A stretch of DNA of 64,000 bases, taken from a virus. Below, piece by piece: positions 6,106-62,933 of this stretch. The first letter of the stretch is position 1, and each line of letters starts with the position of its first letter. Under the pieces are notes generated by a model. It did not search any database. It worked only from the letters and a program-made list of their open reading frames with translations, and was not told the origin of the DNA. A program made the translations under genes and the position numbers. The stretch spans positions 1 through 64,000 of the IMG/VR virus record IMGVR_UViG_3300035695_000002; one strand, given 5' to 3'.

Positions 6106-6131
6106 TTATTTAATTTTAACCCTCTAAATTA

Positions 6132-44048: not shown

Positions 44049-44070
44049 CTGAGAATATTATGAGAATACA

Positions 44071-44101: not shown

Positions 44102-44139
44102 TATCCCGTTTTTCTTTTAACAATTAAATTATATAAAAT

Positions 44140-46062: not shown

Positions 46063-46080
46063 AAATTTGTTTTTGTTTTT

Positions 46081-46113
46081 AGGAGGGGAATGCTTGCATT
46101 CTTCTCCTTTTTT
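46081..46113 (+). terminator. Rho-independent terminator
   Basis: AGGAGGGGAATG..CATTCTTCTCCT followed by T run. Confidence 0.8.
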
Positions 46114-46124
46114 ATTTACATTTG
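46093..46124 (+). promoter_or_regulatory. Bacteroidota promoter for recA operon, overlapping terminator
   Basis: CTTG-N20-TACATTTG. Confidence 0.8.
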
Positions 46125-46138
46125 TAAAAAATTAAACT

Positions 46139-47185: not shown

Positions 47186-47646
47186 TGAGAAAGATATGTA
47201 GGGAGGAGAAGTGTAATAACTATGTATGGGGAAGTGGTTATTGTATATGTCATCAACCTAAGAAACCATTAAAAAGATCTCCTCTTCCTAAAATAGGAAA
47301 ATCCATATATAAAGCAAAGGAAGAGGAAACGTTTGAAGAAACACTTACAAAAGCAATAAATACTATTTCTGAAAGAAACCTATTCTTTTTGTCTATATGG
47401 CAACAGAGACCTCATAAATCTGAGATTTCTGGAGAATGGTTATCACAAGACTTGGATGGATTACCCTCCTCCTCTGCTTACTTCCATCATATAATTCCTA
47501 AAAGTAAGCTAAAAGAGGCAGAATATGATCCAGACAATATAATATTATTAACTATAAATGAGCATTCGAATGTTGAAATGGATGTCTATAGATATGAAGA
47601 AATTAGCAAAAGACGAGAACAATTAAAAATTAAATACAAATTATGA
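47185..47646 (+). CDS. HNH-like nuclease
   Basis: SEISG, FHHIIPKS, NIILL...H. Confidence 0.65.
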   Translation: MRKICREEKCNNYVWGSGYCICHQPKKPLKRSPLPKIGKSIYKAKEEETFEETLTKAINTISERNLFFLSIWQQRPHKSEISGEWLSQDLDGLPSSSAYFHHIIPKSKLKEAEYDPDNIILLTINEHSNVEMDVYRYEEISKRREQLKIKYKL

Positions 47647-47981
47647 ACAAAAACCAATTTTTCTACACAAGAAAAGAAACAATTAAAATGCCCACAGGAG
47701 AACTTTCTCTTAGCTCCACACCTCCTTATGCGGAAAAGATTGTAGAATTCAAAGATAGCTTTAATTACAACAAGGTTATTAGAACTAGGGAGCTAGAAGA
47801 TCATACAATATTAGTAGTGTTAGACGATTTTCATGAGGAAATGAGGGAAGTACCAGGATTTCATCCTAAAACAAGGAAACCCACAGGTGTATATGTAAAA
47901 GAGCGCAATACATATCAAAGTGAGATAGTGCTTTCAAAAGAAGACGGAGATAGACTTTCTAAAATTATATCAATTGATTAA
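47643..47981 (+). CDS. Conserved hypothetical protein
   Basis: FFYTR, LDDFHE, QSEI. Confidence 0.7.
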   Translation: MNKNQFFYTRKETIKMPTGELSLSSTPPYAEKIVEFKDSFNYNKVIRTRELEDHTILVVLDDFHEEMREVPGFHPKTRKPTGVYVKERNTYQSEIVLSKEDGDRLSKIISID

Positions 47982-47982
47982 C

Positions 47983-48270
47983 ATGAAAATACTAGGAAAT
48001 AGGGTGTATTTAAATCTTCCTAAGATAGAGGAGAGTAAATTTAGCATATCTGATGAGCTTAAAAAGGAGCTGCGAGAAAAAGAGATTCAGAAATTTGATA
48101 AACTTACAGTGTATGCTGTGGGAGAAGGTATTCCTGGAATTACAATAAGTGTAAAAGTAGGGGATAAAGTATTTGCAGATCCAGTTGCTATACGTAGAGG
48201 AACCATCTTAAAAATAGAGGATAAGGAATTAATTTGTGTTAATTCTCAAGATATAATGCATGTATGGTAA
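47983..48270 (+). CDS. groES: GroES/Cpn10-like co-chaperonin
   Basis: LGNRV, V.AVGEG, VKVGDKV, DI. Confidence 0.75.
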   Translation: MKILGNRVYLNLPKIEESKFSISDELKKELREKEIQKFDKLTVYAVGEGIPGITISVKVGDKVFADPVAIRRGTILKIEDKELICVNSQDIMHVW

Positions 48271-49022
48271 GTTGGAAATGTACAACAATGGGAAGAGTGT
48301 CAACATTAGAGGAGACACTCTTCTCTTTTTTAAATCAGAGTGATTTAAATGACTGTGAAATGGTGATAGTTAATGACTATCCCTTACAAAACCTTATATT
48401 CAATCATCCCCAAGTAAGGATATTCAATATTAAGGAGCCGTTTAAAACTATTGGTGAAAAGGAGAATTTTGCTATAGAACAGTGTAAAGGGGATATTATA
48501 GCTGTTACAGATGACGATGATGTGTATTTATCCAATCACAATACTAATATAAGGAAGTATTTTACTCCAGAGAGCAGTGTATTACATTGGGATGGAGTAT
48601 ACTATAATGAGCCTGAAATCACATCTCTTGTATTTATAGGGAATTCAGGTATGGTGTATAGTAAAAGAGCTTGGGAAGAGGTGGGAAAATGTCCCATAAT
48701 GAATGCTGGAGGAGATACAACATTTGCTGACAGTATTCATAAATTACACAAATGGACACACGGAAAACCTCCTAGAGGAGAAGAGAGTGCATTTTACAGA
48801 TGGAGTCTTCCAGGTGGGGGCGGTATATATCATCAATCAGGGGCTGGTTTTGATGTAGAGGGAAAGCCTAATATCATCCAGAGACACAGTGCTCATGTAG
48901 AACATCTTAGAAGACTAGGACTTATTCCTACAGGGGATATTGTTCTAAAACCAAATTGGAAGTATGATTATGAACAATTATTAAAAGACTATGTTTCTAG
49001 AGATATTGCTACCAACGTATAA
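48264..49022 (+). CDS. GT2-family glycosyltransferase
   Basis: EMVIVND, IGEK.N, GDIIAVTDDDD. Confidence 0.85.
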   Translation: MVSWKCTTMGRVSTLEETLFSFLNQSDLNDCEMVIVNDYPLQNLIFNHPQVRIFNIKEPFKTIGEKENFAIEQCKGDIIAVTDDDDVYLSNHNTNIRKYFTPESSVLHWDGVYYNEPEITSLVFIGNSGMVYSKRAWEEVGKCPIMNAGGDTTFADSIHKLHKWTHGKPPRGEESAFYRWSLPGGGGIYHQSGAGFDVEGKPNIIQRHSAHVEHLRRLGLIPTGDIVLKPNWKYDYEQLLKDYVSRDIATNV

Positions 49023-49566
49023 TCGCATAAATGAGCTTAAAATGAGCCTTTCCTCATTAATGTGTCAATCTGATGAAGATTGGAAAGCTACTGTTATATT
49101 AGACCATCCCGAACAAGGAGATAGGGCTAAACTACTCAATGTTATACATTCCTTTTATGACGATAGAATTAATTATTTTATCACTCATAGACGATTTAAT
49201 GATTGGGGTCACTCTTTAAGAGAGGCTGGAAAACAAGCAAGTGAAGCAGAATATCTTATAATGACAGGAGACGACAATTATTACACTCCTCATCTTGTAA
49301 AAGAGCTTAAATTAGCTACTACTTCTAAGCCTGGAATGGTATATTGGGATATGGTGCATAGTCATTTTAACTATTCCTATTTTAAATGTTCTCCTGCACA
49401 TGGATATATAGATATGGGAGCCTTTGCTACAAGAACTGATTTAGCCAAACAAATACCTCTAACTACTAATTATGCAGCAGATGGAGATTTTATAGAAGAT
49501 TTCAAGAAAAAGTTCCCTAATGAACAAATAATTAAGATAAATAAGGTTTTATTTGTTCACAACTAG
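48991..49566 (+). CDS. GT2-family glycosyltransferase
   Basis: LPTYNR, WGH, TGDDNYY, IDMG, ADG. Confidence 0.88.
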   Translation: MFLEILLPTYNRINELKMSLSSLMCQSDEDWKATVILDHPEQGDRAKLLNVIHSFYDDRINYFITHRRFNDWGHSLREAGKQASEAEYLIMTGDDNYYTPHLVKELKLATTSKPGMVYWDMVHSHFNYSYFKCSPAHGYIDMGAFATRTDLAKQIPLTTNYAADGDFIEDFKKKFPNEQIIKINKVLFVHN

Positions 49567-49663
49567 CCCTTTTTTGAAATATTCTCTATCCATTGTCCTA
49601 TTTTGAATAGAACAGAGACAATAACAATACTCAATATAGCAGCTATTATTATCATTTAGACAT

Positions 49664-49694
49664 AAAAAAAGCTCTGTAGAAATACAGAGCTTTT
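49664..49694. terminator. Bidirectional terminator between convergent blocks
   Basis: A7-GCTCTGTA-gaaa-TACAGAGC-T4. Confidence 0.85.
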
Positions 49695-49708
49695 AGTTTG
49701 CAAGGAGG

Positions 49709-49846
49709 TTATTTAGATGTTCTTTTTGACTTCATTGGCCACATAGGACTTTTAAGTCGTAATTTTGTATCAGCTTCCTTCATATAATTGTCCTTTGGAT
49801 GAGGATTCTTTACTTTGGGAGCTTTTTTTGGTTTTCCTGATTTCAT
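49709..49846 (-). CDS. Small basic protein (45 aa)
   Basis: MKSGKPKKAPKVKNPHPKDNYMKEAD... Confidence 0.65.
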   Translation of the reverse strand: MKSGKPKKAPKVKNPHPKDNYMKEADTKLRLKSPMWPMKSKRTSK

Positions 49847-50031
49847 ATTCCTTTTTTATATTTCTTTATTGGTGTTACTTGTCCTAATACACGTTTTTGA
49901 TAATCAATCCAATTATCGTAGTTTCCAGCTTTACTCACCTTTCTCCAAGCATTTGTTGTAACACTTGTAGAAAGTGGACTGAATGCTTTTGGTGTCTGAT
50001 TTCCATGAAATTTGGACTGTTTCTTTGCCAT
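49843..50031 (-). CDS. Small basic protein
   Basis: Lys-rich ORF coupled to neighbour. Confidence 0.65.
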   Translation of the reverse strand: MAKKQSKFHGNQTPKAFSPLSTSVTTNAWRKVSKAGNYDNWIDYQKRVLGQVTPIKKYKKGI

Positions 50032-50032
50032 A

Positions 50033-50326
50033 TTATTTTTTAACTTCTTCTTTTGATTCTACCGCTATTCCTGCTTCTACAGCCCTAGCTAGAGTGGTTT
50101 CCATAATATCATTGGCCCTTTCTGCTAACATTATTACACGGGCTTCAGGAGTGCTTAAAACACTTCTAAGAGAATGTAGCAATATACCAAAATCATTTCC
50201 TGGAATATAGAAAACATCTGTAGGTTTCCATTTATATTGCTTACTAGGATCATATTCTATCCTAGTTTCTGCTTTTCCTACCAAAGGTTCTTTTTTTACC
50301 TCTTTATCATCTCTTACAATTTCCAT
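50033..50326 (-). CDS. Conserved hypothetical protein
   Basis: YDPSK.Y.W; preceded by promoter. Confidence 0.75.
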   Translation of the reverse strand: MEIVRDDKEVKKEPLVGKAETRIEYDPSKQYKWKPTDVFYIPGNDFGILLHSLRSVLSTPEARVIMLAERANDIMETTLARAVEAGIAVESKEEVKK

Positions 50327-50347
50327 ATTAATTGGTTTAAATTTCTA

Positions 50348-50379
50348 CAAAGATAAAAGGAGTTTTTTATAAATGCAAG
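50348..50379 (-). promoter_or_regulatory. Bacteroidota promoter
   Basis: Minus strand CTTG-N20-TATCTTTG. Confidence 0.8.
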
Positions 50380-50667
50380 TTATTCTGTAGAAATTTCGAA
50401 TGAAATGGTTCCTCCACTAGATTTAATCGACTTAGAGAGATCTAAATGTATATGAAAACGATTATTAAGCTTTAATATTTCCTCTAGAAGGAGATTTGTA
50501 TATTGAGGGGTTGATGGGGCTATTCTAAAGTTATAAGCTTTCGGAAGCCTTTTTACCTCTAAAGAACATAATTCATCCACTGATTCTAATACTCCCGATA
50601 AGAGGGTGAGATAAAGCTCTTCGTTATCTGGAATTATTGGGAAATCTCCTACTATCTGAACTTCCAT
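50380..50667 (-). CDS. Hypothetical protein
   Basis: ORF in late operon. Confidence 0.7.
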   Translation of the reverse strand: MEVQIVGDFPIIPDNEELYLTLLSGVLESVDELCSLEVKRLPKAYNFRIAPSTPQYTNLLLEEILKLNNRFHIHLDLSKSIKSSGGTISFEISTE

Positions 50668-51075
50668 TTACTCCTGTGTTAATAAATACAAAGTGAGAGC
50701 ACATTTAGCACTCAGTTTTTGACTATTTAGTTCTACACCACAATACATCTTATCTTCTCCAAATTCATATACAGCATGGCTATATTCTTCTAATGCTTTC
50801 ACTGTTTCTATAGCTGTTGCTTTTGAGGAAGGGGATTCTGTTTTAAATCCCTCTATAGTTTTCCCTTCATATCCCATTAATTGCTCTATAATTACATCAG
50901 TTTTTCCTACTAAATAATCATATAAATTTCCTAATGCAATATGCTGCGAATTATTCTTAGTTTTCCAATGAATGAGCTTAATCTGGGCCTGAAAAGTGTG
51001 CAATTTACTTGCAATAGACTCCAATGTAAAATTTTCTTCTTTGGGTTTAACCATTCTTTCTGGAAATATAGCCAT
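50668..51075 (-). CDS. Ferritin/Dps-like protein (DUF5856-like)
   Basis: LIHW.T, H.ALG.LYD, D.IIEQ.MG, YLLT. Confidence 0.75.
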   Translation of the reverse strand: MAIFPERMVKPKEENFTLESIASKLHTFQAQIKLIHWKTKNNSQHIALGNLYDYLVGKTDVIIEQLMGYEGKTIEGFKTESPSSKATAIETVKALEEYSHAVYEFGEDKMYCGVELNSQKLSAKCALTLYLLTQE

Positions 51076-51076
51076 A

Positions 51077-53020
51077 TCAATCAATTATTTCAAATTTTGG
51101 CAAACATACAATAAATTTCCCTTCATATCCTACATCTTTGGCTCTTTTTATAAGTTCTTCCTTGAAGTTTTCAGCAAGTATTACTAGATAATCAGGAGGA
51201 GTTTTTTGTAAATATCTCTTATGTACAATAGGAATTCCTGTACCAGGACTAAATTTCCCTATTTTTTCACTTGTTTCATCTATAATGACATCCATTATAT
51301 CTGTTGTAACATTACAAGCATTTAGAAGAGTGTTGCCTTTAGCACTTGCACCAAAACCGGACAGTTTATATCCCTTTTTCTTTAAGTTTAAAAGGTTTTC
51401 CCCTATAGAGGATATGCTGTCCTTTACCTTAGATTGCCATTTAGAATATAGTTCTAAGGAGGTATATCCTTTTTCATCCTCATTTTTTATGAATTCATGA
51501 ACAGAAGGAGAAACATCGTATCTGGATTCCTGTTTAGCTATTGTAATTCTTATTGTTCCTCCGTGTATATTATGCTTACTCACATCTATAATTTTCATTC
51601 CTAAAGTATCACATAGACTATTAATTGGAGAAATGGAAATATGAGATAAATGTTCGAAATAACATTGGTTCCATTCATTCTCCTCTATAAAGTCTCTAAG
51701 ATAAGGACATTCTATTATTAATATTCCATTAGGAGACAGAACATTTTTAGCTGTCTGTATAAACTCATTAATATTATCAATGTGAGCGAAGACATTGGTT
51801 GCAGAAATTAATTGAGCATTTCCGTATTTGCTAATAATTTCTATTCCTGTTTTTCTACTCCAAAAATCAGCAATTGTAGGAACTCCTATAGATTCTGCAA
51901 TAGCAGCTAGATTCTCAGCAGGATCTACCCCTAACACTTTAATTCCTATTTCTTCCTTAAACTCTTTTAAAAGAGATCCGTCATTAGAGGCTATATCTAT
52001 ATGGAAACTAGAAGATGACAGATGGTATTTTTCCCTTAAATCTTTAGCCATCTTTCTACAATGCTGTAAATATGGTTTATTTACAGAAGATCTATATGTA
52101 TAATAACTATACATCTCCTTAGGATCAATTACTACAGAAAGTTGTGTCAGAAAACACTGCTCACAAACCATCACTTGTAAAGGAAATCTTTGCTTATTTC
52201 TAGCTAATTTAGAAGAAGTTTCCAAGTTGTTGGACAGGGGCATGAGACCTAAATCTAAATATTTAGTTAGTTTTGTAGAATTACATGCTCTACAATGTGT
52301 ATGAGATTTGGCTATTGGGGAATTTGACTTATAATCTATCCATTTCTGGAGATTGAGAGAGGTATCGTAAGGAGTATTAAAACTTGTTTCTGATAGTTTT
52401 ATAGGAGAAACATCAGGATTGCGCTCTTTAGCATAAGAAAATAAAGTTTTTCTCTCTGTACCTAGATTTAATATCCCTATTAATGGACTTATTGAAGCTT
52501 CGTATATTAATGGGGCTATTTTGTCCACATAATCCTTAGAAGCCCATTTATCAATAAATGCTACAGAATAAGAAAATTCATTCTTTCCAAAGGATGTACG
52601 TATAATTAAATGGTTTTTTACAGCATTTACAGAGGCTTCTCCTCCCACTTTAGTCCAAGTATAGAGATTGAAAGGTAGAATAGGATCAGATTCCTTACAG
52701 TTTCCGTGATTTCCTTGATAAACATAGTCAGTGGATAAATATACAAGCCTAATGTCATATTTGGAGCATATAATAGACAGGTTTGCAGCCCCTATTATAT
52801 TAGTTTCAATGGCTTCTCTAGGATTGGTTTCAATAGCTCTATTATCGATTATAGCAGCACTATTTATAATTATATCTGGAGTATGTAGTTTAATAAACTC
52901 TTCAACCTGGCTTAAATTTCGTATATCCACATCATTTTTAGAAGGACATATTAAATTTCCATCAATTTTCTGTAATTCCTTCCCTAATGTCCCATTTCCT
53001 CCAAAAACTACTATTTTCAT
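51077..53020 (-). CDS. Fusion: RmlD-like NDP-4-keto-sugar reductase + NDP-hexose C3-methyltransferase
   Basis: N-term GGNGTLG, STDYVY, YxxxK; C-term CRAC, LDLG..PL.N, CEQC, DIASNDG, NVFAH, YFEH, HGG, GASAKG. Confidence 0.9.
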   Translation of the reverse strand: MKIVVFGGNGTLGKELQKIDGNLICPSKNDVDIRNLSQVEEFIKLHTPDIIINSAAIIDNRAIETNPREAIETNIIGAANLSIICSKYDIRLVYLSTDYVYQGNHGNCKESDPILPFNLYTWTKVGGEASVNAVKNHLIIRTSFGKNEFSYSVAFIDKWASKDYVDKIAPLIYEASISPLIGILNLGTERKTLFSYAKERNPDVSPIKLSETSFNTPYDTSLNLQKWIDYKSNSPIAKSHTHCRACNSTKLTKYLDLGLMPLSNNLETSSKLARNKQRFPLQVMVCEQCFLTQLSVVIDPKEMYSYYTYRSSVNKPYLQHCRKMAKDLREKYHLSSSSFHIDIASNDGSLLKEFKEEIGIKVLGVDPAENLAAIAESIGVPTIADFWSRKTGIEIISKYGNAQLISATNVFAHIDNINEFIQTAKNVLSPNGILIIECPYLRDFIEENEWNQCYFEHLSHISISPINSLCDTLGMKIIDVSKHNIHGGTIRITIAKQESRYDVSPSVHEFIKNEDEKGYTSLELYSKWQSKVKDSISSIGENLLNLKKKGYKLSGFGASAKGNTLLNACNVTTDIMDVIIDETSEKIGKFSPGTGIPIVHKRYLQKTPPDYLVILAENFKEELIKRAKDVGYEGKFIVCLPKFEIID

Positions 53021-53026
53021 ATTGGT

Positions 53027-54376
53027 TTAATTATGATTTACAAGGCATCCATTTACCTTCTTCCATCTATCCTCTCCATATTTGTCTATTATTCTTTTAA
53101 AATAAGTCCAATCACTACTATGTGACATATCTCCCCATCCACTACCTACAGCCACATCTTTTCTAATAATAACACAGGCAGAGTCTATATATCCTAATTT
53201 AAGCCTTGTATCAATGATTCCGTATTTATATACTTCCCAATTTATACCATTACAAGTTCTTTGATTATTTTCAATTATTGTAGTTTTCTGCCAACTATCA
53301 TAAGAATGGACAAATTGGCTGCAATAGGAGGCCAAAATATAAGGATTTTCAAACCCTTTTAATAAAAACTCACAAAAATGAGGAGAATGAAAATTGTCCC
53401 CGTTCGTTATACATACAAAGGATGTATTAGGAGAGAGAATTTCTAGATTATCTAAAGCAAACTGACGAATAGGATGGCCCCATTGTTGCTTCCTTTCCTC
53501 TGTTTCTATAAATTTAATTCTTTTGTCATTAATAACATCTATCACTTTTCTTAACCCTGTAGAATTTGGACCATCATGTATTAATAAAAGTTCCCAATTC
53601 TTATAAGTTTGATTAATTAAACTACTTACAATTTCTGGAAAAGTGTCAAAAATAGGGCAAATAAATGTAATTTTGTTCTCTTCTGAAGGGGGATTTAGGT
53701 CTATAACAATAGGAAGTTCTGGAAATATTTCTTTATGTTCTTTTTCCCTTCTTTTAAATCTTAATTTTCCATATATACCATCATGTCCTGAGTCCCATAG
53801 AGGGGAGGTTTCTATATTATCTACCTGAGCTATTCTACCTATCTTGACTATTTGCTCAAATAATGTAACTGTCTTACTCTTCCTTTTATGCTCAAATTCA
53901 TAACATTCTTCTTTATTTGTTATAATAGGAACAGCAAATGTAATATTAACTAAATCTCTTTTTCTAAGCATAAATCCTGTAGTACGTATATGTTGAGTTA
54001 CTTCTTGACTCAATTCATAACATACACAGGATACATCTTCCTTAAAGGGATATAGAAACCTTTGTATAAACTCCTTATTCATAGGGAGTAAATCGTCTGT
54101 ACACCATAAGAGATAGTCAAATTCTGTAGGAAACCCATCCAATCTTCCTCTACATACATCTTGAAAAGCCCCTATATCAAATCCTATATTAACTCTGGGA
54201 ACATATGTGATATTATTCTTTTTGCACAATTTTTCATATTCATTCTTATCGTTAATATTAACATAATTATGAATAATAACTAATTGGGCATCTGTAGTGT
54301 TACATTGATTCCAACATCTTATCCATTCCTGAACATTATTAAGTCTATTATGTACAATAACAGAAACAACCACCAT
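53027..54376 (-). CDS. Two-domain glycosyltransferase (GT-A + GT2)
   Basis: N-domain NIGFDIGAF, TDD; C-domain QTY.NWEL..IHDG, WGH.IR, NGDN, YID. Confidence 0.85.
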   Translation of the reverse strand: MVVVSVIVHNRLNNVQEWIRCWNQCNTTDAQLVIIHNYVNINDKNEYEKLCKKNNITYVPRVNIGFDIGAFQDVCRGRLDGFPTEFDYLLWCTDDLLPMNKEFIQRFLYPFKEDVSCVCYELSQEVTQHIRTTGFMLRKRDLVNITFAVPIITNKEECYEFEHKRKSKTVTLFEQIVKIGRIAQVDNIETSPLWDSGHDGIYGKLRFKRREKEHKEIFPELPIVIDLNPPSEENKITFICPIFDTFPEIVSSLINQTYKNWELLLIHDGPNSTGLRKVIDVINDKRIKFIETEERKQQWGHPIRQFALDNLEILSPNTSFVCITNGDNFHSPHFCEFLLKGFENPYILASYCSQFVHSYDSWQKTTIIENNQRTCNGINWEVYKYGIIDTRLKLGYIDSACVIIRKDVAVGSGWGDMSHSSDWTYFKRIIDKYGEDRWKKVNGCLVNHN

Positions 54377-54411
54377 AAAATGTAGTTAGATTGGTTTAGA
54401 ACAAAGAAATA

Positions 54412-54588
54412 TTAAGGATGGGAGGTAGTTGTAGTCAAAGGATCACAACAAGTGTATCCTTGTATCTGTCTCCATTTACCCACCTTGGGCATCTTTAATC
54501 TTCCAATTAAGGAACCAGCTACATCTCTGCCACTACCATCGATTCTCACATAGAAATTAAGTACTCTCTTGTCTACGCTATTTGCCAT
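54412..54588 (-). CDS. Small protein with Thr-rich tail (58 aa, below track cutoff)
   Basis: MANSVDKRVLNFYVRIDGSGRDVAGSLIGRLKMPKVGKWRQIQGYTCCDPLTTTTSHP. Confidence 0.75.
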   Translation of the reverse strand: MANSVDKRVLNFYVRIDGSGRDVAGSLIGRLKMPKVGKWRQIQGYTCCDPLTTTTSHP

Positions 54589-54589
54589 T

Positions 54590-55246
54590 TTAATTTAAAT
54601 TTATATTATTTATAATCGAATTATCTTTCTTTACATAAGACCACATATATCCGTTTCTAGGTTTTCTTATATTATTACACCATTTACCTATCGCCTCATG
54701 ACTGTATCCTTCAATTCTTTCGGCCTCCATCGCAGATGAATAGGTTTTAATAAGGTTGTAATCATTATCATATTTATATACTTTCTTACTATTAGGATTC
54801 TCATATCCTTTTTTGTATTTTTCTTTCTGAACCTTACTTAAATATTCTTTTCTGATTTCTGAAAATTTAACACCTTTTCTTGTTGTAAATCTTTTAACGT
54901 TGCCTTGAATATTTAATACATTATATCCATTTTTCAGATATTCAAGAATCAGTTCTTTTTCTCTAATTCTAGCTTCTTCTATATTCTTATATTTTTCTTT
55001 TTCCAACACTCTAAACAATACCTTTTTCTTTTGAATTTTGATTACATCATTCATCCATACATATATTGGGTAATGACTCATTTTTCCTTTTCTTGTATCC
55101 CTAGAGTGAGTCCATGCTCTCCCCATAAAATCTTCTGTTATCCCTATATACACAGATTTATCTTTTATATCTTCTGAATACAGTATATATGTGCTATAGG
55201 GGTTTTCGGGGTAATCTAAATTTACTAATCCATTATATTCCTTCAT
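54590..55246 (-). CDS. GIY-YIG homing endonuclease with NUMOD1-like C-terminus
   Basis: TYIL..VYIGIT, E..LI..Y, LN; KVYKYD..LIKTY.SA.EA. Confidence 0.8.
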   Translation of the reverse strand: MKEYNGLVNLDYPENPYSTYILYSEDIKDKSVYIGITEDFMGRAWTHSRDTRKGKMSHYPIYVWMNDVIKIQKKKVLFRVLEKEKYKNIEEARIREKELILEYLKNGYNVLNIQGNVKRFTTRKGVKFSEIRKEYLSKVQKEKYKKGYENPNSKKVYKYDNDYNLIKTYSSAMEAERIEGYSHEAIGKWCNNIRKPRNGYMWSYVKKDNSIINNINLN

Positions 55247-56253
55247 AGGTTATATTTCTGTTTTAATTCAATCATTTTCGATACATAGTACCAATTACAG
55301 AGAGTTTTAGACTGTTCATTATTATACACCAGTTCTAAATGAGAGTCCTCAAAAGGATTAGCTCCCATGTGATATTTTCCTTTATAAAAAACAGGAATTT
55401 CTCCTTGTTTCTCTCCTACAATTCCTGCATTATGAAATATAGGACATGTTTCTAATTTAGAAATAGGATCACTGCTCCATGCAAAGTTAAGTTCTTCTAC
55501 TATTCTAGTTTCCTGATTTCTGTCCCATAATCCCCATAGCACAGCCCACATATCAGCACACCAGCTTTGAAACCCTTTATTTTCATTTTCAAAGAAGTAT
55601 TTATTTATTTCCTGGAGATATTGTCTGATTTTGATAGAATCTGTTATTATTTTGTCCCAAAATTGCCAATCTATATTTTTTAACAGATATTGTGCCCCTC
55701 CCGAATTCAAATTATTCTTTTCTGCTATTTCTCTGGAAACTCCTACTAGTTTACAAGCCTCATTTAATATATCCCTAGTTTTATATTGCTCTAGTTTCTC
55801 CGGAATAACATCCTTTATTTTACTATCAAAATAAGAAGCATTTATATAACTTAATGTATTTGAGAGATAACAGACATCATCATTTAAGAACTTATCAATA
55901 TTAAATTTTTCTGTGAAAAGAACATCACAATCACTATAAAATACAGCTTTTTCCTTTAATTCTGGATGTAATTTGAAATATTTCATAAGAATATACGGTC
56001 TTATAAGAGGTATGTATATTCCTAAGAGTTTAGTTATATTGTCTGTATCTTTGTAAAAGAAAAATTCAGATTCTGGGTATAATTCTTTTAATTTATCCCA
56101 TTTAGGGTTTCTATCTCTATAATTAGGGGTAAATATTAGAGAGACAGCTTTATTTGACTTTCCTATTGATTTTAGGCTTTCCAACCATAAATGGGTTTGC
56201 CACCAGTAGTAATCATCACAAGGGGCACATTGCATAAATACTAAATCTCTCAT
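55243..56253 (-). CDS. GT-A glycosyltransferase resembling HPAT/SGT1 (GT95/GT96) peptidyl O-glycosyltransferases
   Basis: YYWWQ near N-terminus, YIPLIRPY, DCD, GGAQY, WCADMWA, H near C-terminus. Confidence 0.65.
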   Translation of the reverse strand: MRDLVFMQCAPCDDYYWWQTHLWLESLKSIGKSNKAVSLIFTPNYRDRNPKWDKLKELYPESEFFFYKDTDNITKLLGIYIPLIRPYILMKYFKLHPELKEKAVFYSDCDVLFTEKFNIDKFLNDDVCYLSNTLSYINASYFDSKIKDVIPEKLEQYKTRDILNEACKLVGVSREIAEKNNLNSGGAQYLLKNIDWQFWDKIITDSIKIRQYLQEINKYFFENENKGFQSWCADMWAVLWGLWDRNQETRIVEELNFAWSSDPISKLETCPIFHNAGIVGEKQGEIPVFYKGKYHMGANPFEDSHLELVYNNEQSKTLCNWYYVSKMIELKQKYNL

Positions 56254-56280
56254 GTAATTATTGGTTTTTACTTAAATTTG

Positions 56281-56385
56281 CTATTTTGTAGAAAGAATCT
56301 TTGTCAAAGTCTCAATTTGCATTGATATTCTCTGTAACCATTTCACTTTTCTACTAGATCCTATTTGTTGATTTTGTGTAGCCAT
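56281..56385 (-). CDS. 34-aa mini-protein homologous to fibre N-terminal anchor
   Basis: MATQNQQIGSSRKVKWLQRISMQIETLTKILSTK vs MSVPNRQIG..WLSFISKQMERLTQV. Confidence 0.65.
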   Translation of the reverse strand: MATQNQQIGSSRKVKWLQRISMQIETLTKILSTK

Positions 56386-56387
56386 AA

Positions 56388-57893
56388 TTAATCGTTTGTT
56401 GTTTTAGCAGTTAAGAAATATGTAGTTCCTCCTATATTTACAGTGATGGTTCTATTTTGCGCTGTTGGAGAAACAACATTTACAGCACTTTCTGTTATAA
56501 CTCCTTCTCTAGTGGTTCCTGTTCTTGTAAAGAATAAATTAGTTCCATCATATTCCATACATCCAGCCACTGCTGTTGTTAAATTGGTTCCGGAAGTAAA
56601 CTTTAAAGGAGCTAATATTGTTGTTCCTGCTCCTATTACAGCTAGTGCATTTGCTGGCGTTGCTCCTGCTCCTAAACTTGTGATTCCTCGTCTAACTAAA
56701 AGACCGTACTCAATACCAACAACTGCTATAATAGCAGGATTAATATCTAAATATGTGATAGATCCATTTGATCCACCTGTTTGATTTATTGCGGTTGTTA
56801 TTGATACAGCAGTAAATGCTGCAGTACCAGAAGCAGGGCTAAAAAATCCAGCGAAAGATGAACCTGTGATTGCTCCAGAAGTTGGAGTTACTGTATTTCC
56901 TGGGTTAATAGTAATACCGATCCCACTAGTAGCATTCCATGTACTGGGTTGATTAATAATAAACCCTGTATTTACTTGTATTTGATTTGCTACAGCGCTA
57001 GATCCGTTTAGAGTTATACCCCCAACATTACCTAATCCGGCAGCATCATTTATTTTTAATCCGTGAGCTTGAGTTAGTAATATTGCTCCATCTGATGCCA
57101 GTGTCAATCCTCCATTTGTAGAACTACCAGCAACCTTAGATTGAAATATTAAATTAGTAGTAGGGTTTGCAGATCCTTGAACCGGAAGATTATAAATTTG
57201 CCATAATGTTTGAACACTTGCTGTTCCTGTTGTTTTCCACCCCTGACCCTCAAATGTTATTATAGGAGAAATCTGTTGAGCACCTGCTGCTGCTGCTGTG
57301 GAATTTGAAAACCATAAGCCAGCACCATCTACTACAGTAGTTCCTAAAGAAGCAAAGGAATATTTTATAATATTAGTTGTTGTACCTACTATTGTATTTG
57401 GTCCAGATAATGTTCCTCCAGAAGCTAAAAGCCAAGAAAGTCCTGTAGATTGTTTACCATTAAATGTATTCCAATCGGCAGAGGATAAATATCCATTAGT
57501 TGATGTAGTAGCTTGAATAACTTGAATAGTAGTATTTGCTAATAAAGTACTAGATCCTGTTATAGTAAGAACTGCTGAAGTAGCCTCTGTCAAATTACCA
57601 GCAGCAGTGTATGAAGGAGCAGCAGATCCTCCTGTATTATTACCAAACCATGTGTGTGCTCCAGCATTAGACAATGAGAAAGATAGAGATGGAGTAGTGG
57701 TGGGAGTGCCTACAGAAGTAGTAAATAAAGGAGATAGATTTCCACTAGAAAAAGAAGAAACTGTACCTCCTCCACCACCACCTGATATATTAGAAGCTAC
57801 TTGTGTCAACCTTTCCATCTGTTTAGAGATGAAAGATAACCAATATTCTTCTGGTGCTGATTCTGCTCCTATTTGTCTATTAGGTACGGACAT
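56388..57893 (-). CDS. Virion fibre protein (Ser/Thr/Gly-rich)
   Basis: Short anchor, poly-Gly linker, NGYLSSADWNTFNGKQ fibre repeat, beta-rich body. Confidence 0.75.
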   Translation of the reverse strand: MSVPNRQIGAESAPEEYWLSFISKQMERLTQVASNISGGGGGGTVSSFSSGNLSPLFTTSVGTPTTTPSLSFSLSNAGAHTWFGNNTGGSAAPSYTAAGNLTEATSAVLTITGSSTLLANTTIQVIQATTSTNGYLSSADWNTFNGKQSTGLSWLLASGGTLSGPNTIVGTTTNIIKYSFASLGTTVVDGAGLWFSNSTAAAAGAQQISPIITFEGQGWKTTGTASVQTLWQIYNLPVQGSANPTTNLIFQSKVAGSSTNGGLTLASDGAILLTQAHGLKINDAAGLGNVGGITLNGSSAVANQIQVNTGFIINQPSTWNATSGIGITINPGNTVTPTSGAITGSSFAGFFSPASGTAAFTAVSITTAINQTGGSNGSITYLDINPAIIAVVGIEYGLLVRRGITSLGAGATPANALAVIGAGTTILAPLKFTSGTNLTTAVAGCMEYDGTNLFFTRTGTTREGVITESAVNVVSPTAQNRTITVNIGGTTYFLTAKTTND

Positions 57894-57915
57894 TATATTT
57901 TTTATTTAAATTTTC

Positions 57916-60435
57916 TTAAACATTTTCTATTGTTGCTATCGGTAATCTGGAACTGTTAGTTATACCTGACTGTGTAATCCTCCACTTATAAACTGTAGGA
58001 TTGCCTATGAAATCGGTATTATAAATAATATCCCCCTTTTTATAACCAATTGAGTTTGCATTACTCGCCACAAATACCCCTTGTTCTATTCCTTGCCAAT
58101 CTACCCCAGTAACCTCAACAAGACCATTATCTATTGCATTATTGCTTACAGTTATTGTTGTACTTGTCACAGATATAATATGAGTGCCTTCTGGAAAATA
58201 AGGACTGAATATCGTCATTCTTGGAGCAGCAGAACTAATAGGAGCTTCTCCTACACAATTTGTTATTACATTACTACCACTTATAGCATCTCCTATTACA
58301 AAAAATGGATAAACATTTGGTATTCTACCTATATAAAAATTGTAATTAGTTACAGCATCAATCCCCTTCCCTATATAGGAGAGGGTTATAGTGGATGTTG
58401 CGTCGTTTTTAGCTGTAACTACACCACAACACAAGTACCTATTCGCAATTCCGTATTCATCAAGAATATTAGTTGTTCCATTAAGGAAGATAGTGTCCTG
58501 AATATATACTTTGTTGTAATCATCCCCTGCACTCATCACTATATCTGCTGTAAGATTTATAGCATCTATATTGCTAAAACTTAATGTCCCTGACTTTAAA
58601 GGGAAAAAATACCATTCTTCAGGAGTTCTTGTTGTAGAAGTGGGATTTGTTATATTTGTATTTCTTTTCCTTTTGCGTATCAAAGAACTTGTATTACCAA
58701 GTGGAGTAGATCCATTTCTCCTATTATAACTAATAATCATATCTGATAGTAATAGATATGGAGTATTTTCTGATAATTCTTGTGGTTTAGATACTGTTAT
58801 AATATCAGAACTTCCAAACGGTAAAGTACTTTGAGCACTTGAACAATTAACAAATTCTAATTGTCCTTGTAAATAATAATTAATTGGAAGTTGATTGAAA
58901 TAACATTTATCGAAATAAGCACTTTGACAATCAACTGCTAAAGGTGTATAATAAATAGCTCCGTAAGTAAAGAACATCGAATCAACAACTTTGAGGTAGC
59001 CCCCTTTAAATATTGTATATGCATTATGTATTGCCGGACTTCCGTATACAGGAGCTTGAAAATTGATTCTACAACCCTCTAATGTCATATGACCAAAAAC
59101 AGTAGAACCATTGAGCATATAAAAGCTCTCCAAATGTCCTCTTTTTATAATTATTCCTTTATTTGCAAAAGATGTTAGTTTAGCTATATATCTAACACTC
59201 CCTGCCACATTAAGCCCATCTACTTCAGGATGATCCCCCGTACCGTTACCATAATCAAAAGAATTAAAGATGGTTTCGGTGTGCCCCCAACACTTAAAAT
59301 TATTTATCTGGCATGACCTATTCTGTGATTGTCCAATAGATACTGCACTTCTACAACTATCTCCCCAACAATTATTGATACAGATAGCATCTCCGTTTTG
59401 AGGAGTGATGTGGGGACTTAAGCAATATCCAACAACTAAATTAGCTACTCTACAACTATCGAAAATAATATCTGTAGAGCCTCCATTACCGTCTGCTGAA
59501 TTATAATATGAAGCAAAATCAGGATATATATCAGTTGCTGAAGAATCATTAATAAAAGGATCAACTACAAATCCTGCATGAGGAGAATAAGGAGTATCTC
59601 TACATCCTCCTGAAAAATTAGTTGCTGGATTTTCTAAAACATCATAAACCGATAAGTTAGCAATAGCTGAATTAGCACCATTTAAAAAAATACCATAAAC
59701 CCTCACCCCTTTACATTTATGTAATCCTACCATAAAAGTATTTTTATTGGTTGTAGTTAATTTTGTTTGTCCGGCAGTCCCATCATATACATTCGTCTCT
59801 CCTTCTAATCTAAAACTATTACAGAATTGATTCAGTCCTTGTCTAACCAGTATGCCAATCCCTATTTTATAATTACCAAATGGTAAATAAACATATTTTA
59901 ACTTAGAAACAATAGCACTATCTATTGTCTTTTGAATTGCGGGTTGGTCATCTTGAATACCGTCCCCTAATGCTCCAAACCATCTTACTGACCATTTTCC
60001 TAAAGATAACGCCTCTGGAACAATTGTTAAAGTGGTGTCGAATATTTTACTTCTAAAAGGACCATCAATAATACCACCATTAATAGTTCCTATTCCTGTT
60101 AAATATGTTCCATTTTCAAAAATTAAATATTTTCCAGAAGGAACTGTCACTGTACCACTTATTGTTATTGCTCCTCCTCCTTTTATATCAAATTTAACCC
60201 CTTTTACATTTGAACTTGATAAAATTGTATTTAATTTAGTGGTCATATCAGAGCCATTAGCATAAATACCGGCATTTCTACATGGCACTATACCATTTAA
60301 TTCTAATGCAATCCATTTATTAGTACCGTCATCATAACCAAATACTCCATCATTAGAGTATCCGGCAGGAAATGCAGCCACTTGCATCATTATATTTCCT
60401 CTATCTTGAATAAATGCTCCAGAAGCTACTGACAT
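57916..60435 (-). CDS. Tail spike / polysaccharide depolymerase (beta-helix)
   Basis: SVRWFGALGDGIQDDQPAIQKTID..VYLPFG.Y pectate-lyase-3-like start. Confidence 0.8.
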   Translation of the reverse strand: MSVASGAFIQDRGNIMMQVAAFPAGYSNDGVFGYDDGTNKWIALELNGIVPCRNAGIYANGSDMTTKLNTILSSSNVKGVKFDIKGGGAITISGTVTVPSGKYLIFENGTYLTGIGTINGGIIDGPFRSKIFDTTLTIVPEALSLGKWSVRWFGALGDGIQDDQPAIQKTIDSAIVSKLKYVYLPFGNYKIGIGILVRQGLNQFCNSFRLEGETNVYDGTAGQTKLTTTNKNTFMVGLHKCKGVRVYGIFLNGANSAIANLSVYDVLENPATNFSGGCRDTPYSPHAGFVVDPFINDSSATDIYPDFASYYNSADGNGGSTDIIFDSCRVANLVVGYCLSPHITPQNGDAICINNCWGDSCRSAVSIGQSQNRSCQINNFKCWGHTETIFNSFDYGNGTGDHPEVDGLNVAGSVRYIAKLTSFANKGIIIKRGHLESFYMLNGSTVFGHMTLEGCRINFQAPVYGSPAIHNAYTIFKGGYLKVVDSMFFTYGAIYYTPLAVDCQSAYFDKCYFNQLPINYYLQGQLEFVNCSSAQSTLPFGSSDIITVSKPQELSENTPYLLLSDMIISYNRRNGSTPLGNTSSLIRKRKRNTNITNPTSTTRTPEEWYFFPLKSGTLSFSNIDAINLTADIVMSAGDDYNKVYIQDTIFLNGTTNILDEYGIANRYLCCGVVTAKNDATSTITLSYIGKGIDAVTNYNFYIGRIPNVYPFFVIGDAISGSNVITNCVGEAPISSAAPRMTIFSPYFPEGTHIISVTSTTITVSNNAIDNGLVEVTGVDWQGIEQGVFVASNANSIGYKKGDIIYNTDFIGNPTVYKWRITQSGITNSSRLPIATIENV

Positions 60436-60438
60436 AGA

Positions 60439-60654
60439 TTAATTTAAATTAAATACTGTGAAAGCACTTCCTCCTGAAAATCCTACAACATTTATAGTGA
60501 GATCAGGATAAATCCCTGTGATAGATATATTTGCTCCAGGAAGAATATTAGGAAGAGGACCTATAGTAGATGTAATAAGCCTATCTAAATCAAGATAATC
60601 ATTATATTTCTTCGCAGAAGTTATCCAAAAACCCGTTTTTATATAATGAGGCAT
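60439..60654 (-). CDS. Small putative structural protein
   Basis: IKTGFW..LDLD; G.NISITG.YP..TIN fibre-like repeat. Confidence 0.6.
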   Translation of the reverse strand: MPHYIKTGFWITSAKKYNDYLDLDRLITSTIGPLPNILPGANISITGIYPDLTINVVGFSGGSAFTVFNLN

Positions 60655-60657
60655 ATT

Positions 60658-61290
60658 TTATTTTTTACCCACTTTTAACTCTAATATTTGAGGAATATGT
60701 ACATGAGGATTAGAAGAGGTCATTTCTGAGAAATATTTCTTCTTTCCTAAAAACCATTTCCTTTTCCAATATAATACTCCATCTATAGGAGCATCTACTT
60801 CGTACTTTAGTACTGCACTGTCTGGAGAAACTTGTTTATAATCGAATTTTGACCATTTGTCTTGTTTTTTCCAATCTTTAGCTACAAATTTGATAGTGTC
60901 TCCTTTTTTATCTATATATGTGATAGTTGTGTCTTTTGGATGGATACGTAAACTATCTATAGATTGAGATTGGACTTGGAAAGCATACTCTAGATTTTTA
61001 TAACTTTTCTTTAATCCTTGGAATTCCTTTAGAAAGGAGAGATTTCCATCTTTTACAAGTTGTTTGATTGTGTTATTTTCAAGAACAACAGCTTGGTTTT
61101 TAGCTACTTCTTCCCCTGACTTATTTTTATAATATTGAGTTTTCATTTGCTCTTTACTAAAAAGCTGTTCTACACCCTGTTTTTGAGCCTTTTCTTCTCT
61201 ATATTTGTTGTAAAATGTATAAAGTAGAACACCAGTTATGATTAGCAATAATACTAACCCTGCTTCTATTTTAAGTCTTAAAGATAACAT
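60658..61290 (-). CDS. Putative spanin (Rz-like)
   Basis: N-terminal TM, coiled coil, KRKWFLGKK; in lysis cluster. Confidence 0.55.
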   Translation of the reverse strand: MLSLRLKIEAGLVLLLIITGVLLYTFYNKYREEKAQKQGVEQLFSKEQMKTQYYKNKSGEEVAKNQAVVLENNTIKQLVKDGNLSFLKEFQGLKKSYKNLEYAFQVQSQSIDSLRIHPKDTTITYIDKKGDTIKFVAKDWKKQDKWSKFDYKQVSPDSAVLKYEVDAPIDGVLYWKRKWFLGKKKYFSEMTSSNPHVHIPQILELKVGKK

Positions 61291-61292
61291 AA

Positions 61293-61490
61293 TTACTCGT
61301 CTATTTTTTCTCCTGATTGTAATTTGAAATATAGAGCTGTTTCATGCCCCACCCATGTAAGAAATAATGATAGAAATACCCACCATTTGTTATCTTGGAA
61401 TAGTAATACAGCACTCATAGCTGATCCCAGTCTACTAACACTGGCTCCTAGGAAAGAATATTCTTTAGGTGTATCAGGAAGATATTTCAT
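61293..61490 (-). CDS. Putative holin
   Basis: Small, two hydrophobic segments, near endolysin. Confidence 0.5.
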   Translation of the reverse strand: MKYLPDTPKEYSFLGASVSRLGSAMSAVLLFQDNKWWVFLSLFLTWVGHETALYFKLQSGEKIDE

Positions 61491-61819
61491 TACTTTACTA
61501 TAAACTTATCTATTATATATATAATAAGTCCCAATGTCATTACAATACCTTGCCAATTACCTTTTAAAGTGTTCATGAAGGATTTATTTTCTTCTACTTT
61601 TGGAGAAATGTCGTCCAAATCTCTATCCAATACTCTAATTTTCTCTCCTACAGTGGCTCTAAGGACAGCTAAGTCTGTTTTTAGGTCATTGTGACTGGTT
61701 TCCAACCCTGTAACTCTACCATTGGTTTTTCTACATTCTGTTAGAGTGTTTTCTCCTGTAATTTTTATTACAGCCAACTGTTCTCTTATTGTTGATAATT
61801 CTTCAGCAATATCTGCCAT
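61490..61819 (-). CDS. Coiled-coil protein with C-terminal TM (holin/antiholin-like)
   Basis: TNGRV motif, C-terminal TM. Confidence 0.55.
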   Translation of the reverse strand: MADIAEELSTIREQLAVIKITGENTLTECRKTNGRVTGLETSHNDLKTDLAVLRATVGEKIRVLDRDLDDISPKVEENKSFMNTLKGNWQGIVMTLGLIIYIIDKFIVK

Positions 61820-61844
61820 TATTATAATAATTAAGGGATTTATA

Positions 61845-61876
61845 CAAAAGTATGACTAAAAAAGCAAATTTCCAAG
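61845..61876 (-). promoter_or_regulatory. Bacteroidota promoter
   Basis: Minus strand CTTG-N20-TACTTTTG. Confidence 0.75.
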
Positions 61877-61922
61877 GATTTACTTGGAAATTAATGCTAT
61901 AGAGAAATTGAATTATATGGAA

Positions 61923-62429
61923 TTAAACTAATCCATCCCAAGTGGGATCTGTGGATTTAACTATTGAAAATTTATCTAAATTTGGGAGATATTGCCAATG
62001 CCATCTCTCTGATAGTACTGTTCTTACAAAACCGTAAGTTTTAGCATTATGAAACATCCATTTATAGACATCTGGAGGAACATTGAAATCATAAGCATCT
62101 CCGTTTTGATGATTGGAATATCCAGGTTTAGCTGTTCTAGGACTAAATAGTCCATTATCTGCATTTATTAGATATGTCCTATCGTTTATTTTAGTCTTAT
62201 CTATTACATTCCTTTGACGAAATCCATATTGCTCTTCCCAAGTTCTGAATCCTTCATTTAAATGGAGAGTGATATTGTCCTTTTTAGCACCGTTAATGAT
62301 TGATTGTACAAAAGAAAGATAAGAATTAACGACCTTTTTACCATCAATTAAGGAAATCCCCTCATATCTTAGGAGTTTTCCATTGTCATATAAGGCATAT
62401 TCTCCTTTTCCGTTTTGAGATTCTATCAT
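61923..62429 (-). CDS. Endolysin, peptidase M15 (VanY-like)
   Basis: GFRT.EEQ, A.PG.SNH..G.A.D, E.WH. Confidence 0.9.
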   Translation of the reverse strand: MIESQNGKGEYALYDNGKLLRYEGISLIDGKKVVNSYLSFVQSIINGAKKDNITLHLNEGFRTWEEQYGFRQRNVIDKTKINDRTYLINADNGLFSPRTAKPGYSNHQNGDAYDFNVPPDVYKWMFHNAKTYGFVRTVLSERWHWQYLPNLDKFSIVKSTDPTWDGLV

Positions 62430-62878
62430 TAATAATTTAAAAATAATCGTTCAAATAGATAGATATAATTATAACTTAAGTTTTGTTTGGTTTCTTCTAA
62501 TCTTTTATTCATTATTTCCCAATCTGGGAGTTCTTCAAAAACAATAGTCACTTCACTATCTAACAATTCTTTAGTTTTAGATTGCTTTAAAATACCTAAT
62601 TTTAGATTGTCTTCATCATTTTCCTTATAATCTTCAGGAAGAGTTCCATTATATAATTCAGCAAACCCCAGAAGATTAATAGCTTGAAATTGTTCCCTAG
62701 ACACATTCTCTCCAACTTTCTTAAGGGTTTTATTGGCTATTCTCCTCACTCCTTCACTTATAGATTTTTCATTACAAAACCCTAAAATCTTAACATCTTC
62801 CTTACCATTATTGAAAGATACTCCAGCTAGGAGATTTAAGCATTCATATAATTCTTCTACCTTTAACTTTTTTTCCAT
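62429..62878 (-). CDS. Hypothetical protein (possible fibre-associated chaperone)
   Basis: Acidic helical ORF after tail fibre; ELLD.EV.I. Confidence 0.6.
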   Translation of the reverse strand: MEKKLKVEELYECLNLLAGVSFNNGKEDVKILGFCNEKSISEGVRRIANKTLKKVGENVSREQFQAINLLGFAELYNGTLPEDYKENDEDNLKLGILKQSKTKELLDSEVTIVFEELPDWEIMNKRLEETKQNLSYNYIYLFERLFLNY

Positions 62879-62899
62879 ATTTAATTGGTTTAATTTTCG

Positions 62900-62930
62900 C
62901 AAATATAGTAAAATAATTCAATAATACAAA
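62900..62930 (-). promoter_or_regulatory. Bacteroidota promoter
   Basis: Minus strand TTTG-N19-TATATTTG. Confidence 0.8.
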
Positions 62931-62933
62931 TAG

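Follow-up and report, generated by a model that had tools for sequence, protein, structure and literature searches.

A candidate poly-threonine O-glycosyltransferase with a GT8-type fold in a crAss-like phage and its relatives

Results

The transferase gene and its family

A glycosyltransferase (GT) gene, 55243..56253 on the minus strand, was analyzed in the first 64,000 nucleotides (hereafter the window) of the IMG/VR virus record IMGVR_UViG_3300035695_000002. The record is a complete genome of 120,724 bp with terminal repeats. It belongs to a crAss-like phage, because a 1627-amino acid (aa) protein encoded at 91108-95991 on the minus strand matches the crAss muzzle protein (Pfam, 4.2e-41). 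The GT gene lies in the minus-strand late arm, where transcription passes, in this order, through the genes of a tailspike, a fibre, the GT, a GIY-YIG endonuclease, a 58-aa open reading frame (ORF), a 449-aa protein, a 647-aa protein and a DUF5856 protein. The product of the 58-aa ORF (54412..54588, minus strand), hereafter the mini-protein, is composed of a conserved β-sheet module of about 45 aa, a CC pair and a short threonine tail, TTTTSHP. As described below, the enzyme family is found together with runs of threonine in phage-made proteins, and such runs are its probable acceptors.

The GT gene starts with ATG and encodes a 336-aa protein with the motifs CAPCDDYYWWQT, YIPLIRPY, DCD, GGAQY and SWCADMWA, in the order given for this ORF by a preliminary description made from the letters alone. 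All five coincide with invariant or nearly invariant columns of three alignments, of 75 relatives (A1), of 18 divergent rows (A2) and of 78 rows (A3). Invariant positions in A1 are Y80, D108, D110, Y136, F257, H274 and K291, and R85, G185, G186, Q188, Q229 and D234 are nearly so; in A3, W18, Q19, Y80, D108, D110, G186, Q188, Q229, W231, M235 and W236 are invariant or close to it. Among 150 cluster representatives the patterns [FYW]xDxD, GGxQ and QxWxx[DE]M were present in 138, 134 and 104, respectively. The family comprises 2511 proteins (90% clusters) at E<=0.001 and 751 representative clusters at 50% identity. Judged by this conservation, the five motifs are the core of a large family and not a chance arrangement.

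PHROGs assign the enzyme to family 4417, which is labelled ‘unknown function’ (E 2.2e-50). Neither Pfam, at E<=1 and E<=10, nor NCBIfam yielded a match. Searches of PDB sequences gave no match with the enzyme as a single query and two chance matches to designed proteins (E 0.029 and 1.3) with the A1 profile. In a homologue search with A2, the 120 matches listed of 4461 were all family members without annotation, and megablast of positions 44000-64000 of the window found no match in GenBank phages. The family is present in a single copy in the 120.7-kb genome. In some metagenomic relatives (P0134, P0173, P0240, P0256) the GT domain is fused to Methyltransf_24, Methyltransf_23, GT2 or GT32-like (Gly_transf_sug) domains, and these fusions point to multi-step glycan building within one polypeptide.

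The enzyme has a GT-A fold of GT8 type

An AlphaFold2 (AF2) model of the enzyme, built with the 75-row alignment, has a predicted local distance difference test score (pLDDT) of 97.9 and a predicted template modelling score of 0.94; the whole chain is one globular domain. The model was compared exhaustively with 48,161 solved chains, and the comparison recognised the Rossmann-like α/β/α domain of the GT-A fold. The twelve best matches (Z 11.8 to 14.2, 208-250 residues aligned, 8-13% identity) are all retaining GT-A enzymes, either of GT8 or of the UGGT, WbbM and GT6 types. They include the Skp1 galactosyltransferase Gat1 (6mw8; Z 14.2, root-mean-square deviation 3.5, 217 residues), LgtC (1g9r; 14.2, 3.5 and 229, respectively), glycogenin (3u2t; Z 14.1), UGGT (13.9), WbbM (13.6), LARGE1 (13.0), GlyE (5gvv; 12.9), the GT8 protein of unknown function 3tzt (12.4) and two GT6 enzymes (12.4 and 11.8). 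The first inverting enzyme in the ranking is Manic Fringe, at Z 10.9. Among predicted viral structures, the only close matches were two unannotated phage proteins, followed by GT8-like enzymes of giant viruses. The model thus has the three-dimensional architecture of GT8; the Glyco_transf_8 sequence model did not match the enzyme in Pfam at E<=10 and was absent among the families listed for 75 and 78 relatives (25 of 30 and 25 of 31, respectively).

The DxD motif D108-C-D110 (55924..55932, minus strand) directly follows a strand formed by residues 103-107 of the model, and both aspartates are invariant in all rows of A1, A2 and A3. In GT-A enzymes in general this motif functions in binding of the metal and the nucleotide sugar, and D108xD110 is presumed to be the corresponding site here. 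The GT-A fold together with the invariant DxD identifies the protein as a glycosyltransferase, in agreement with the preliminary description. A second block, H274...K291 (HNAG ... FxK; 55381..55434, minus strand), contains two residues invariant in A1; in A3 this also holds for K291 and very nearly for H274. We take the block as a candidate equivalent of the C-terminal His/Lys that GT8-type enzymes have. The chain begins with the first β strand of the fold. The highest Kyte-Doolittle mean over 19 residues is 1.09, and the enzyme has no signal peptide or membrane helix, as had been noted earlier. According to the model, then, the protein is a soluble glycosyltransferase with a GT-A fold, its architecture is of GT8 type and its family is uncharacterised. 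A glycogenin-like self-priming role finds no support beyond the fold.

The preliminary description had further likened the enzyme to GT95/GT96, the families of the plant HPAT/SGT1 enzymes, and had proposed modelling with AlphaFold and a Foldseek search as a check. The Foldseek search was in line with the GT8-type fold: its matches included XXYLT1 and glycogenin (E about 5e-6), although the TM-scores were modest, at 0.37-0.62. The relevant part of one review treats GT95 and GT96 as related peptide O-glycosyltransferases and the plant HPAT/SGT1 enzymes as type II membrane proteins of the Golgi (PMC8012813). Were the phage enzyme a true member with the same chemistry, it would add arabinose to hydroxyproline (Hyp) or galactose to serine. 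A distant kinship may be indicated by the Pfam HPAT model (PF23452), the only Pfam family matched by more than one of the 75 relatives (two of them, weakly, best E 0.012). In the ESM Atlas, PF23452 is found on some of the members in 22 of the 30 named clusters nearest to the enzyme and, for a 64%-identical relative, P0069, in 11 of 30, with DUF7164 in four more; the shares of members quoted for such clusters are 10% and 58%. By these language-model features HPAT is the closest family with a name. Such a neighbourhood is a lead rather than a test, and HPAT is possibly the nearest named kin of the enzyme.

On the other side, PF23452 matches neither the enzyme at E<=10 nor any of the 77 bacterial relatives scanned. 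When run over DNA with a cut-off of 23.9 bits it found nothing in the phage's own genome or in five phage records, and no match passed that threshold either in 10 bacterial genomes known to hold a family member (best E 0.175) or in two samples of 401 genomes; none of these DNA searches had a positive control, and absence is not implied. The enzyme lacks the type II membrane anchor of the plant proteins, the tags that accompany it are runs of Thr and not Pro/Hyp-rich tracts, and no prolyl hydroxylase was found among the 17 window ORFs scanned with Pfam. The enzyme is not a demonstrable member of GT95 or GT96. That label is unproven, and true membership with the chemistry of the plant enzymes appears very improbable.

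Poly-threonine partners in the crAss-like clade

The best 80 of 292 related viral loci (59-87% identity) were compared together with the window, giving 81 loci. The mini-protein family was found in 75 of the 81 by clustering and in 74 by a strict motif, which recovered 113 ORFs. In 49 loci a mini-protein gene lies less than 150 bp downstream of the GT gene, often in two or three tandem copies. The tails that follow the CC pair are very variable in length, with medians of 28.5 aa for length and 54% for Thr content. An AF2 model of the mini-protein reaches pLDDT >90 at residues 11-40, with three strands, and has a disordered tail. A fold search with the module gave no meaningful match, and Pfam, PHROG and NCBIfam gave none to the mini-protein. 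In some members of the family the Thr run is followed by further domains.

An ORF with at least six Thr in eight residues is present in 75 of the 81 loci. Seven loci lack a downstream mini-protein, and in three of these a poly-Thr mini-ORF stands just upstream of the GT gene. The genome under study encodes four further poly-Thr proteins, all on the minus strand and outside the window: a 106-aa ORF (64301-64621) that ends in T7-HP, the same ending as in the mini-protein, two late-arm ORFs (90433-91095 and 104219-105376) and the 1627-aa crAss muzzle protein. The 385-aa and 220-aa poly-Thr late proteins had no PDB match, and the former, which has a Thr/Ser-rich C-terminal tail, was also without a match in Pfam, PHROGs and GenBank phages. 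Phage virion O-glycosylation would be expected to combine a GT with Ser/Thr-rich tags on late proteins of the same phage, and this layout is present in the genome and in its relatives. A prediction of the complex of the GT (with A1) and the mini-protein (with an alignment of its own, A4) gave no answer (score 0.01), which counts neither for nor against binding.

Two contigs from metagenome-assembled genomes, of Sediminibacterium (L076; 111,986 bases, close in size to these phage genomes) and of Cytophagales (L072), encode transferases that are 62% and 58% identical to that of the window and fall in its clade of the family tree. The contigs are probably phage DNA binned with bacterial contigs, and give a weak hint at Bacteroidota hosts.

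The enzyme and threonine tails change together in unrelated phages

GT homologues with 26-34% identity were detected by tblastn in 77 GenBank phage records, mostly of Lactobacillus, Enterococcus, Staphylococcus and Lactococcus phages. Six loci were examined, and in all six the neighbours of the homologue carry poly-Thr tracts, which in four siphophages are C-terminal tails. In Enterococcus phage phiFL1A the tracts are found on the major tail protein gp50 and on gp45; in Lactobacillus phage iLp84, on the major capsid protein, a 126-aa protein and the major tail protein; in phiCTP1, on gp18. In Lactococcus phage 1706 the tagged proteins are orf10 (capsid/protease) and orf13, each with a terminal HHD after its Thr run. 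Lactobacillus phage Iacchus has two small poly-Thr ORFs, and Chryseobacterium phage MA9V-3 also has two. In Iacchus (L006; Herelleviridae, a large myovirus) the homologue is located outside the head/tail module (2913-6627), between the poly-Thr ORFs and a glycerophosphodiester phosphodiesterase gene.

A natural experiment was provided by 27 IMG/VR loci whose tail proteins are homologous to that of phiFL1A (64-100% identity). In every one of the 12 loci with a GT gene directly downstream, the tail protein ends in a Thr run, and a second poly-Thr ORF occupies the capsid position. In the 15 loci that lack the GT, no Thr run was present at any position. A tree was built from 26 tail-protein sequences with their tails trimmed (L193, ended by the contig edge, was left out). 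By parsimony it requires at least four changes of state, and the GT and the Thr tail always change together, also between sister pairs.

These data bear on two readings in which the enzyme has no protein acceptor. The first is that it modifies an envelope glycan of the host (lipopolysaccharide, capsule or teichoic acid) and so blocks superinfection; its best fold matches do include the lipopolysaccharide/lipooligosaccharide transferase LgtC and the O-antigen enzyme WbbM, and the Iacchus homologue adjoins the phosphodiesterase gene. Such a role leaves unexplained the joint gain and loss of the GT and poly-Thr tails, the position in head/tail modules, the conserved mini-protein and the bacterial peptide context described below, and the enzyme is soluble. 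We rejected it on co-variation with poly-Thr, structural-module position, mini-protein and peptide context, and regard it as highly unlikely.

The second is glycosylation of modified bases of the phage DNA. Phage-encoded GTs of DNA hypermodification pathways exist, as stated in part of a published account (PMC13326640). The family, however, is also present in structural modules of small temperate Firmicutes phages and in bacterial peptide clusters, and no base-hydroxymethylase was found among the window ORFs scanned, the rest of the genome not having been searched for one. This role was likewise rejected on these grounds, and hardly any weight is left to it.

A bacterial branch lies in peptide biosynthesis clusters

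A pattern scan of species-representative genomes with A2 yielded 79 bacterial loci (L007-L085), mostly on chromosomes of Pedobacter, Chitinophaga, Sphingobacterium, Mucilaginibacter and Elizabethkingia. The A1 profile gave one full-length match per locus (79), with E around 1e-90 to 1e-110 among the 40 matches listed. The bacterial GT is often the N-terminal domain of a protein of 500-590 aa, and is usually fused to a C-terminal domain of 190-270 aa without a Pfam match.

At least one hallmark of ribosomally made peptides with post-translational modifications (RiPPs) was present in 54 of the 79 loci: an ABC exporter with a C39 peptidase in 35, HlyD in 24, C39/VKOR/thioredoxin fusions or thioredoxin-like proteins in 25 and a LanB dehydratase in nine. 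Precursors of 72-101 aa with double-glycine leaders were found in 29 loci, a count that includes the four loci whose precursors have Thr runs. The 33 distinct double-glycine precursors contain 6.1 Cys on average, and Ser and Thr together make up 0.30 of the first 15 residues of their cores and 0.18 of the rest (p 3e-5). Four other precursors have Thr runs at or near the C-terminus. The leaders are of the same type as those in the Bacteroidetes class I lanthipeptides of Walker et al., as far as a portion of that paper describes them (PMC7268733). In a midpoint-rooted FastTree of 179 family members, all 53 RiPP-context enzymes that were placed fall into one clade of 59 (support 0.998), and the clade of the window lies in the other half of the tree. 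The mini-protein of the window has no double-glycine leader, and no C39 exporter was found among the 17 ORFs. From their gene content, the Pedobacter, Chitinophaga and Sphingobacterium clusters are suggestive of an undescribed class of glycosylated ribosomal peptides.

Neighbouring genes and the question of the first sugar

Three further ORFs with GT2 domains are present in the window. The 449-aa protein (53027..54376, minus strand) has a C-terminal GT2 domain (Glycos_transf_2, residues 244-378, E 8.3e-9) and an N-terminal half without family assignment. Two overlapping GT2 genes for proteins of 252 and 191 aa (48264..49566, plus strand; Glycos_transf_2, E 1.1e-8 and 3.2e-7) converge on the late arm. 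The 647-aa protein (51077..53020, minus strand) is a fusion, in one single ORF, of an RmlD-like nucleoside diphosphate (NDP)-sugar reductase and a Zn-binding C-methyltransferase (RmlD_sub_bind 2.3e-32, Methyltransf_13 1.5e-18, Methyltransf_14 1.4e-42). The families of the 449-aa and 647-aa proteins occur in two of the 81 loci, the window and its closest relative L088, and the plus-strand GT2 family in 31. Possible roles are extension of the glycan for the GT2 proteins and, for the fusion, supply of an unusual donor sugar as a lineage-specific accessory.

With such genes nearby, the enzyme could belong to a glycosylation system and yet add a later sugar, the first being put on Thr by another enzyme. 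RiPP clusters with the family also hold GT2 genes, the known peptide-glycosylating RiPP enzymes (SunS type) are GT2, and many GT8 enzymes, among them LgtC, XXYLT1 and LARGE1, extend glycans. The accessory GT genes are, however, missing from most relatives while the pair of GT and mini-protein is kept. Moreover, a search limited to GT2 (PF00535) found no match in five GenBank phage genomes, Iacchus excluded, that have the enzyme and poly-Thr tails, whereas its positive control was detected in each of 14 genomes; in these phages the enzyme has no GT2 partner. We consider transfer of a later sugar only to be unlikely, and retain direct modification of Thr as the preferred function.

Of the other neighbours, the fibre (56388-57893, minus strand; 501 aa, rich in Ser, Thr and Gly) directly precedes the enzyme and is itself preceded by the pectate-lyase-like tailspike (57916-60435, minus strand); fibre families were seen in only 1-2 of the 81 loci. 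The GIY-YIG homing endonuclease (54590..55246, minus strand; Pfam GIY-YIG, E 3e-6) has a start that overlaps the GT stop by 4 bases. Since its family is present in 39 of the 81 loci and is found between GT and mini-protein in only five, it looks like a mobile insertion, a passenger outside the mechanism. Downstream of the transferase module, the DUF5856 protein (50668-51084, minus strand; PHROG 858, labelled ‘starvation-inducible regulator’) and two small minus-strand ORFs without family match, of 95 aa (50380-50667) and 97 aa (50033-50326), are conserved across related loci (77, 73 and 56 of 81, respectively).

Discussion

Three independent settings tie this enzyme family, on comparative genomic evidence, to peptides or proteins of ribosomal origin with runs of hydroxy-amino acids: the mini-proteins of crAss-like phages, the capsid and tail proteins of Firmicutes siphophages and the secreted precursors of Bacteroidota. 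The simplest mechanism, and the most likely one on this evidence, is that a metal-dependent enzyme of GT8-like type O-glycosylates Thr runs directly, in the cytoplasm. Starting from the observed fold, conserved DxD, solubility and co-occurrence with poly-Thr proteins, we propose, with a probability of roughly 0.7, that the gene product is a soluble GT-A glycosyltransferase of GT8 type, from a family not yet characterised, which acts in the cytoplasm and has Thr runs on phage-made proteins as its acceptors. The idea of a peptide acceptor had been raised in the preliminary description; comparative genomics points to Thr-run acceptors, the TTTT-tailed 58-aa neighbour included.

The enzyme would use a metal-bound NDP-sugar through D108xD110, probably with retention. 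Its acceptors in this phage would be the mini-protein, most likely, and probably also the four other poly-Thr proteins of the late arm, including the crAss muzzle. Sugar transfer would take place in the cytoplasm, ahead of assembly or in its course, and produce mucin-like, sugar-coated tags; in this lineage the glycan may be extended or diversified through the GT2 genes and the reductase/C-methyltransferase fusion. In this scheme we infer the donor, the linkage and its stereochemistry, initiation rather than extension of the glycan, and presence of the tags on the virion.

Several points weigh against the proposed function. The tail of the window's mini-protein has four Thr and one Ser only and is the weakest and shortest of its clade, and no ORF of the 64-kb window reaches six Thr in eight residues. 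No poly-Thr ORF is found near the GT in four of the 81 loci (L106, L113, L152 and L158), two of which have little contig room. The co-occurrence covers the best 80 of 292 viral loci only, and the locus ORFs came from a simple script, with its own ORF caller and clustering thresholds, and were clustered with those of the window. Retaining chemistry is probable from the fold neighbours only. In the bacterial RiPP clusters, GT2 and LanC/LanB genes are also present. Because of the GT2 and LanC-like genes, the GT need not start the glycan there: it could extend one started by GT2, and the Thr runs in LanB-type clusters could be sites of dehydration rather than of sugar attachment. Finally, the full-text literature searched describes no glycan, mass shift or activity for any family member. 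The enzyme family, a transferase encoded beside poly-Thr-tailed proteins in phages of Firmicutes or Bacteroidota, and the enzyme of Bacteroidota peptide clusters were likewise not described in the literature searched, subscription papers and supplements being largely outside its scope.

A wider proposal is more tentative, and we would give it somewhat less than an even chance. A single GT-A family, which may represent relatives of plant HPAT in prokaryotes and viruses, would be a general O-glycosyltransferase of poly-threonine tags, with which phages of at least three bacterial phyla coat capsids, tails and dedicated mini-proteins in mucin-like glycans; one branch would have been recruited into RiPP pathways of Bacteroidota. 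If so, a short portable Thr tag and one soluble enzyme would make up a self-contained cytoplasmic O-glycosylation system, a testable candidate for a compact bacterial O-glycosylation tool. Sugar-coated virions would then be widespread among phages that infect lactic acid bacteria, enterococci, staphylococci and Bacteroidota, crAss-like phages included. Contacts of crAss-like particles in the gut and the environment with mucus, hosts and antibodies could be shaped in this way, which would bear on phage persistence and on how antibodies and mucus see phages.

Comparison with known systems

The enzyme shares its fold with GT8 and neighbouring families. It differs from them by an identity of only 8-13%, by the lack of a GT8 Pfam match in the matches listed and by the conserved blocks of its own family, YxxWQ, GGAQY and QxWCADMW. 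With the plant HPAT/SGT1 enzymes it would have in common, as proposed here, that the sugar goes onto consecutive hydroxy-amino acids of a repetitive tract. The plant enzymes, however, are anchored in the Golgi, whereas the phage enzyme is soluble, and the acceptor here would be Thr, compared to Hyp or Ser-Hyp4 in plants.

Glycocin clusters, such as those of sublancin and glycocin F, are laid out with a C39 exporter, thioredoxin-type proteins and a Cys-rich double-glycine precursor, and their known transferases are GT2 enzymes of the SunS type. The bacterial relatives of the phage enzyme resemble them in the C39-ABC exporter, HlyD, thioredoxin/VKOR proteins and Cys-rich double-glycine precursors. 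In contrast to glycocin clusters, their transferase is GT8-like and continues into a C-terminal domain of unknown kind, a GT2 is often present as well, and their hosts are Bacteroidota.

The closest parallel among phages is provided by mycobacteriophages. In the virions of Che8, Corndog and Myrna, glycans are reportedly O-linked to C-terminal extensions (Freeman et al. 2023, Cell Host Microbe 31:1216). Part of another article describes phage-encoded GTs of mycobacteriophages that modify the phages' own capsid and tail-tube proteins (PMC12363180), and in the literature covered glycosylated phage particles have been demonstrated experimentally only for mycobacteriophages. As in those phages, the enzyme gene studied here lies in or beside the structural module and is accompanied by tagged structural proteins, here known from genes alone. 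The differences are that the phages belong to Firmicutes and Bacteroidota hosts, that the enzyme family is unnamed and has no Pfam or NCBIfam match, that the tags are nearly pure Thr runs and that the capsid and tail tube give way, as main partner in the crAss-like clade, to a dedicated mini-protein. Self-glycosylation by phages is thus known; what would be new is an uncharacterised enzyme family acting on a tag of this simplicity.

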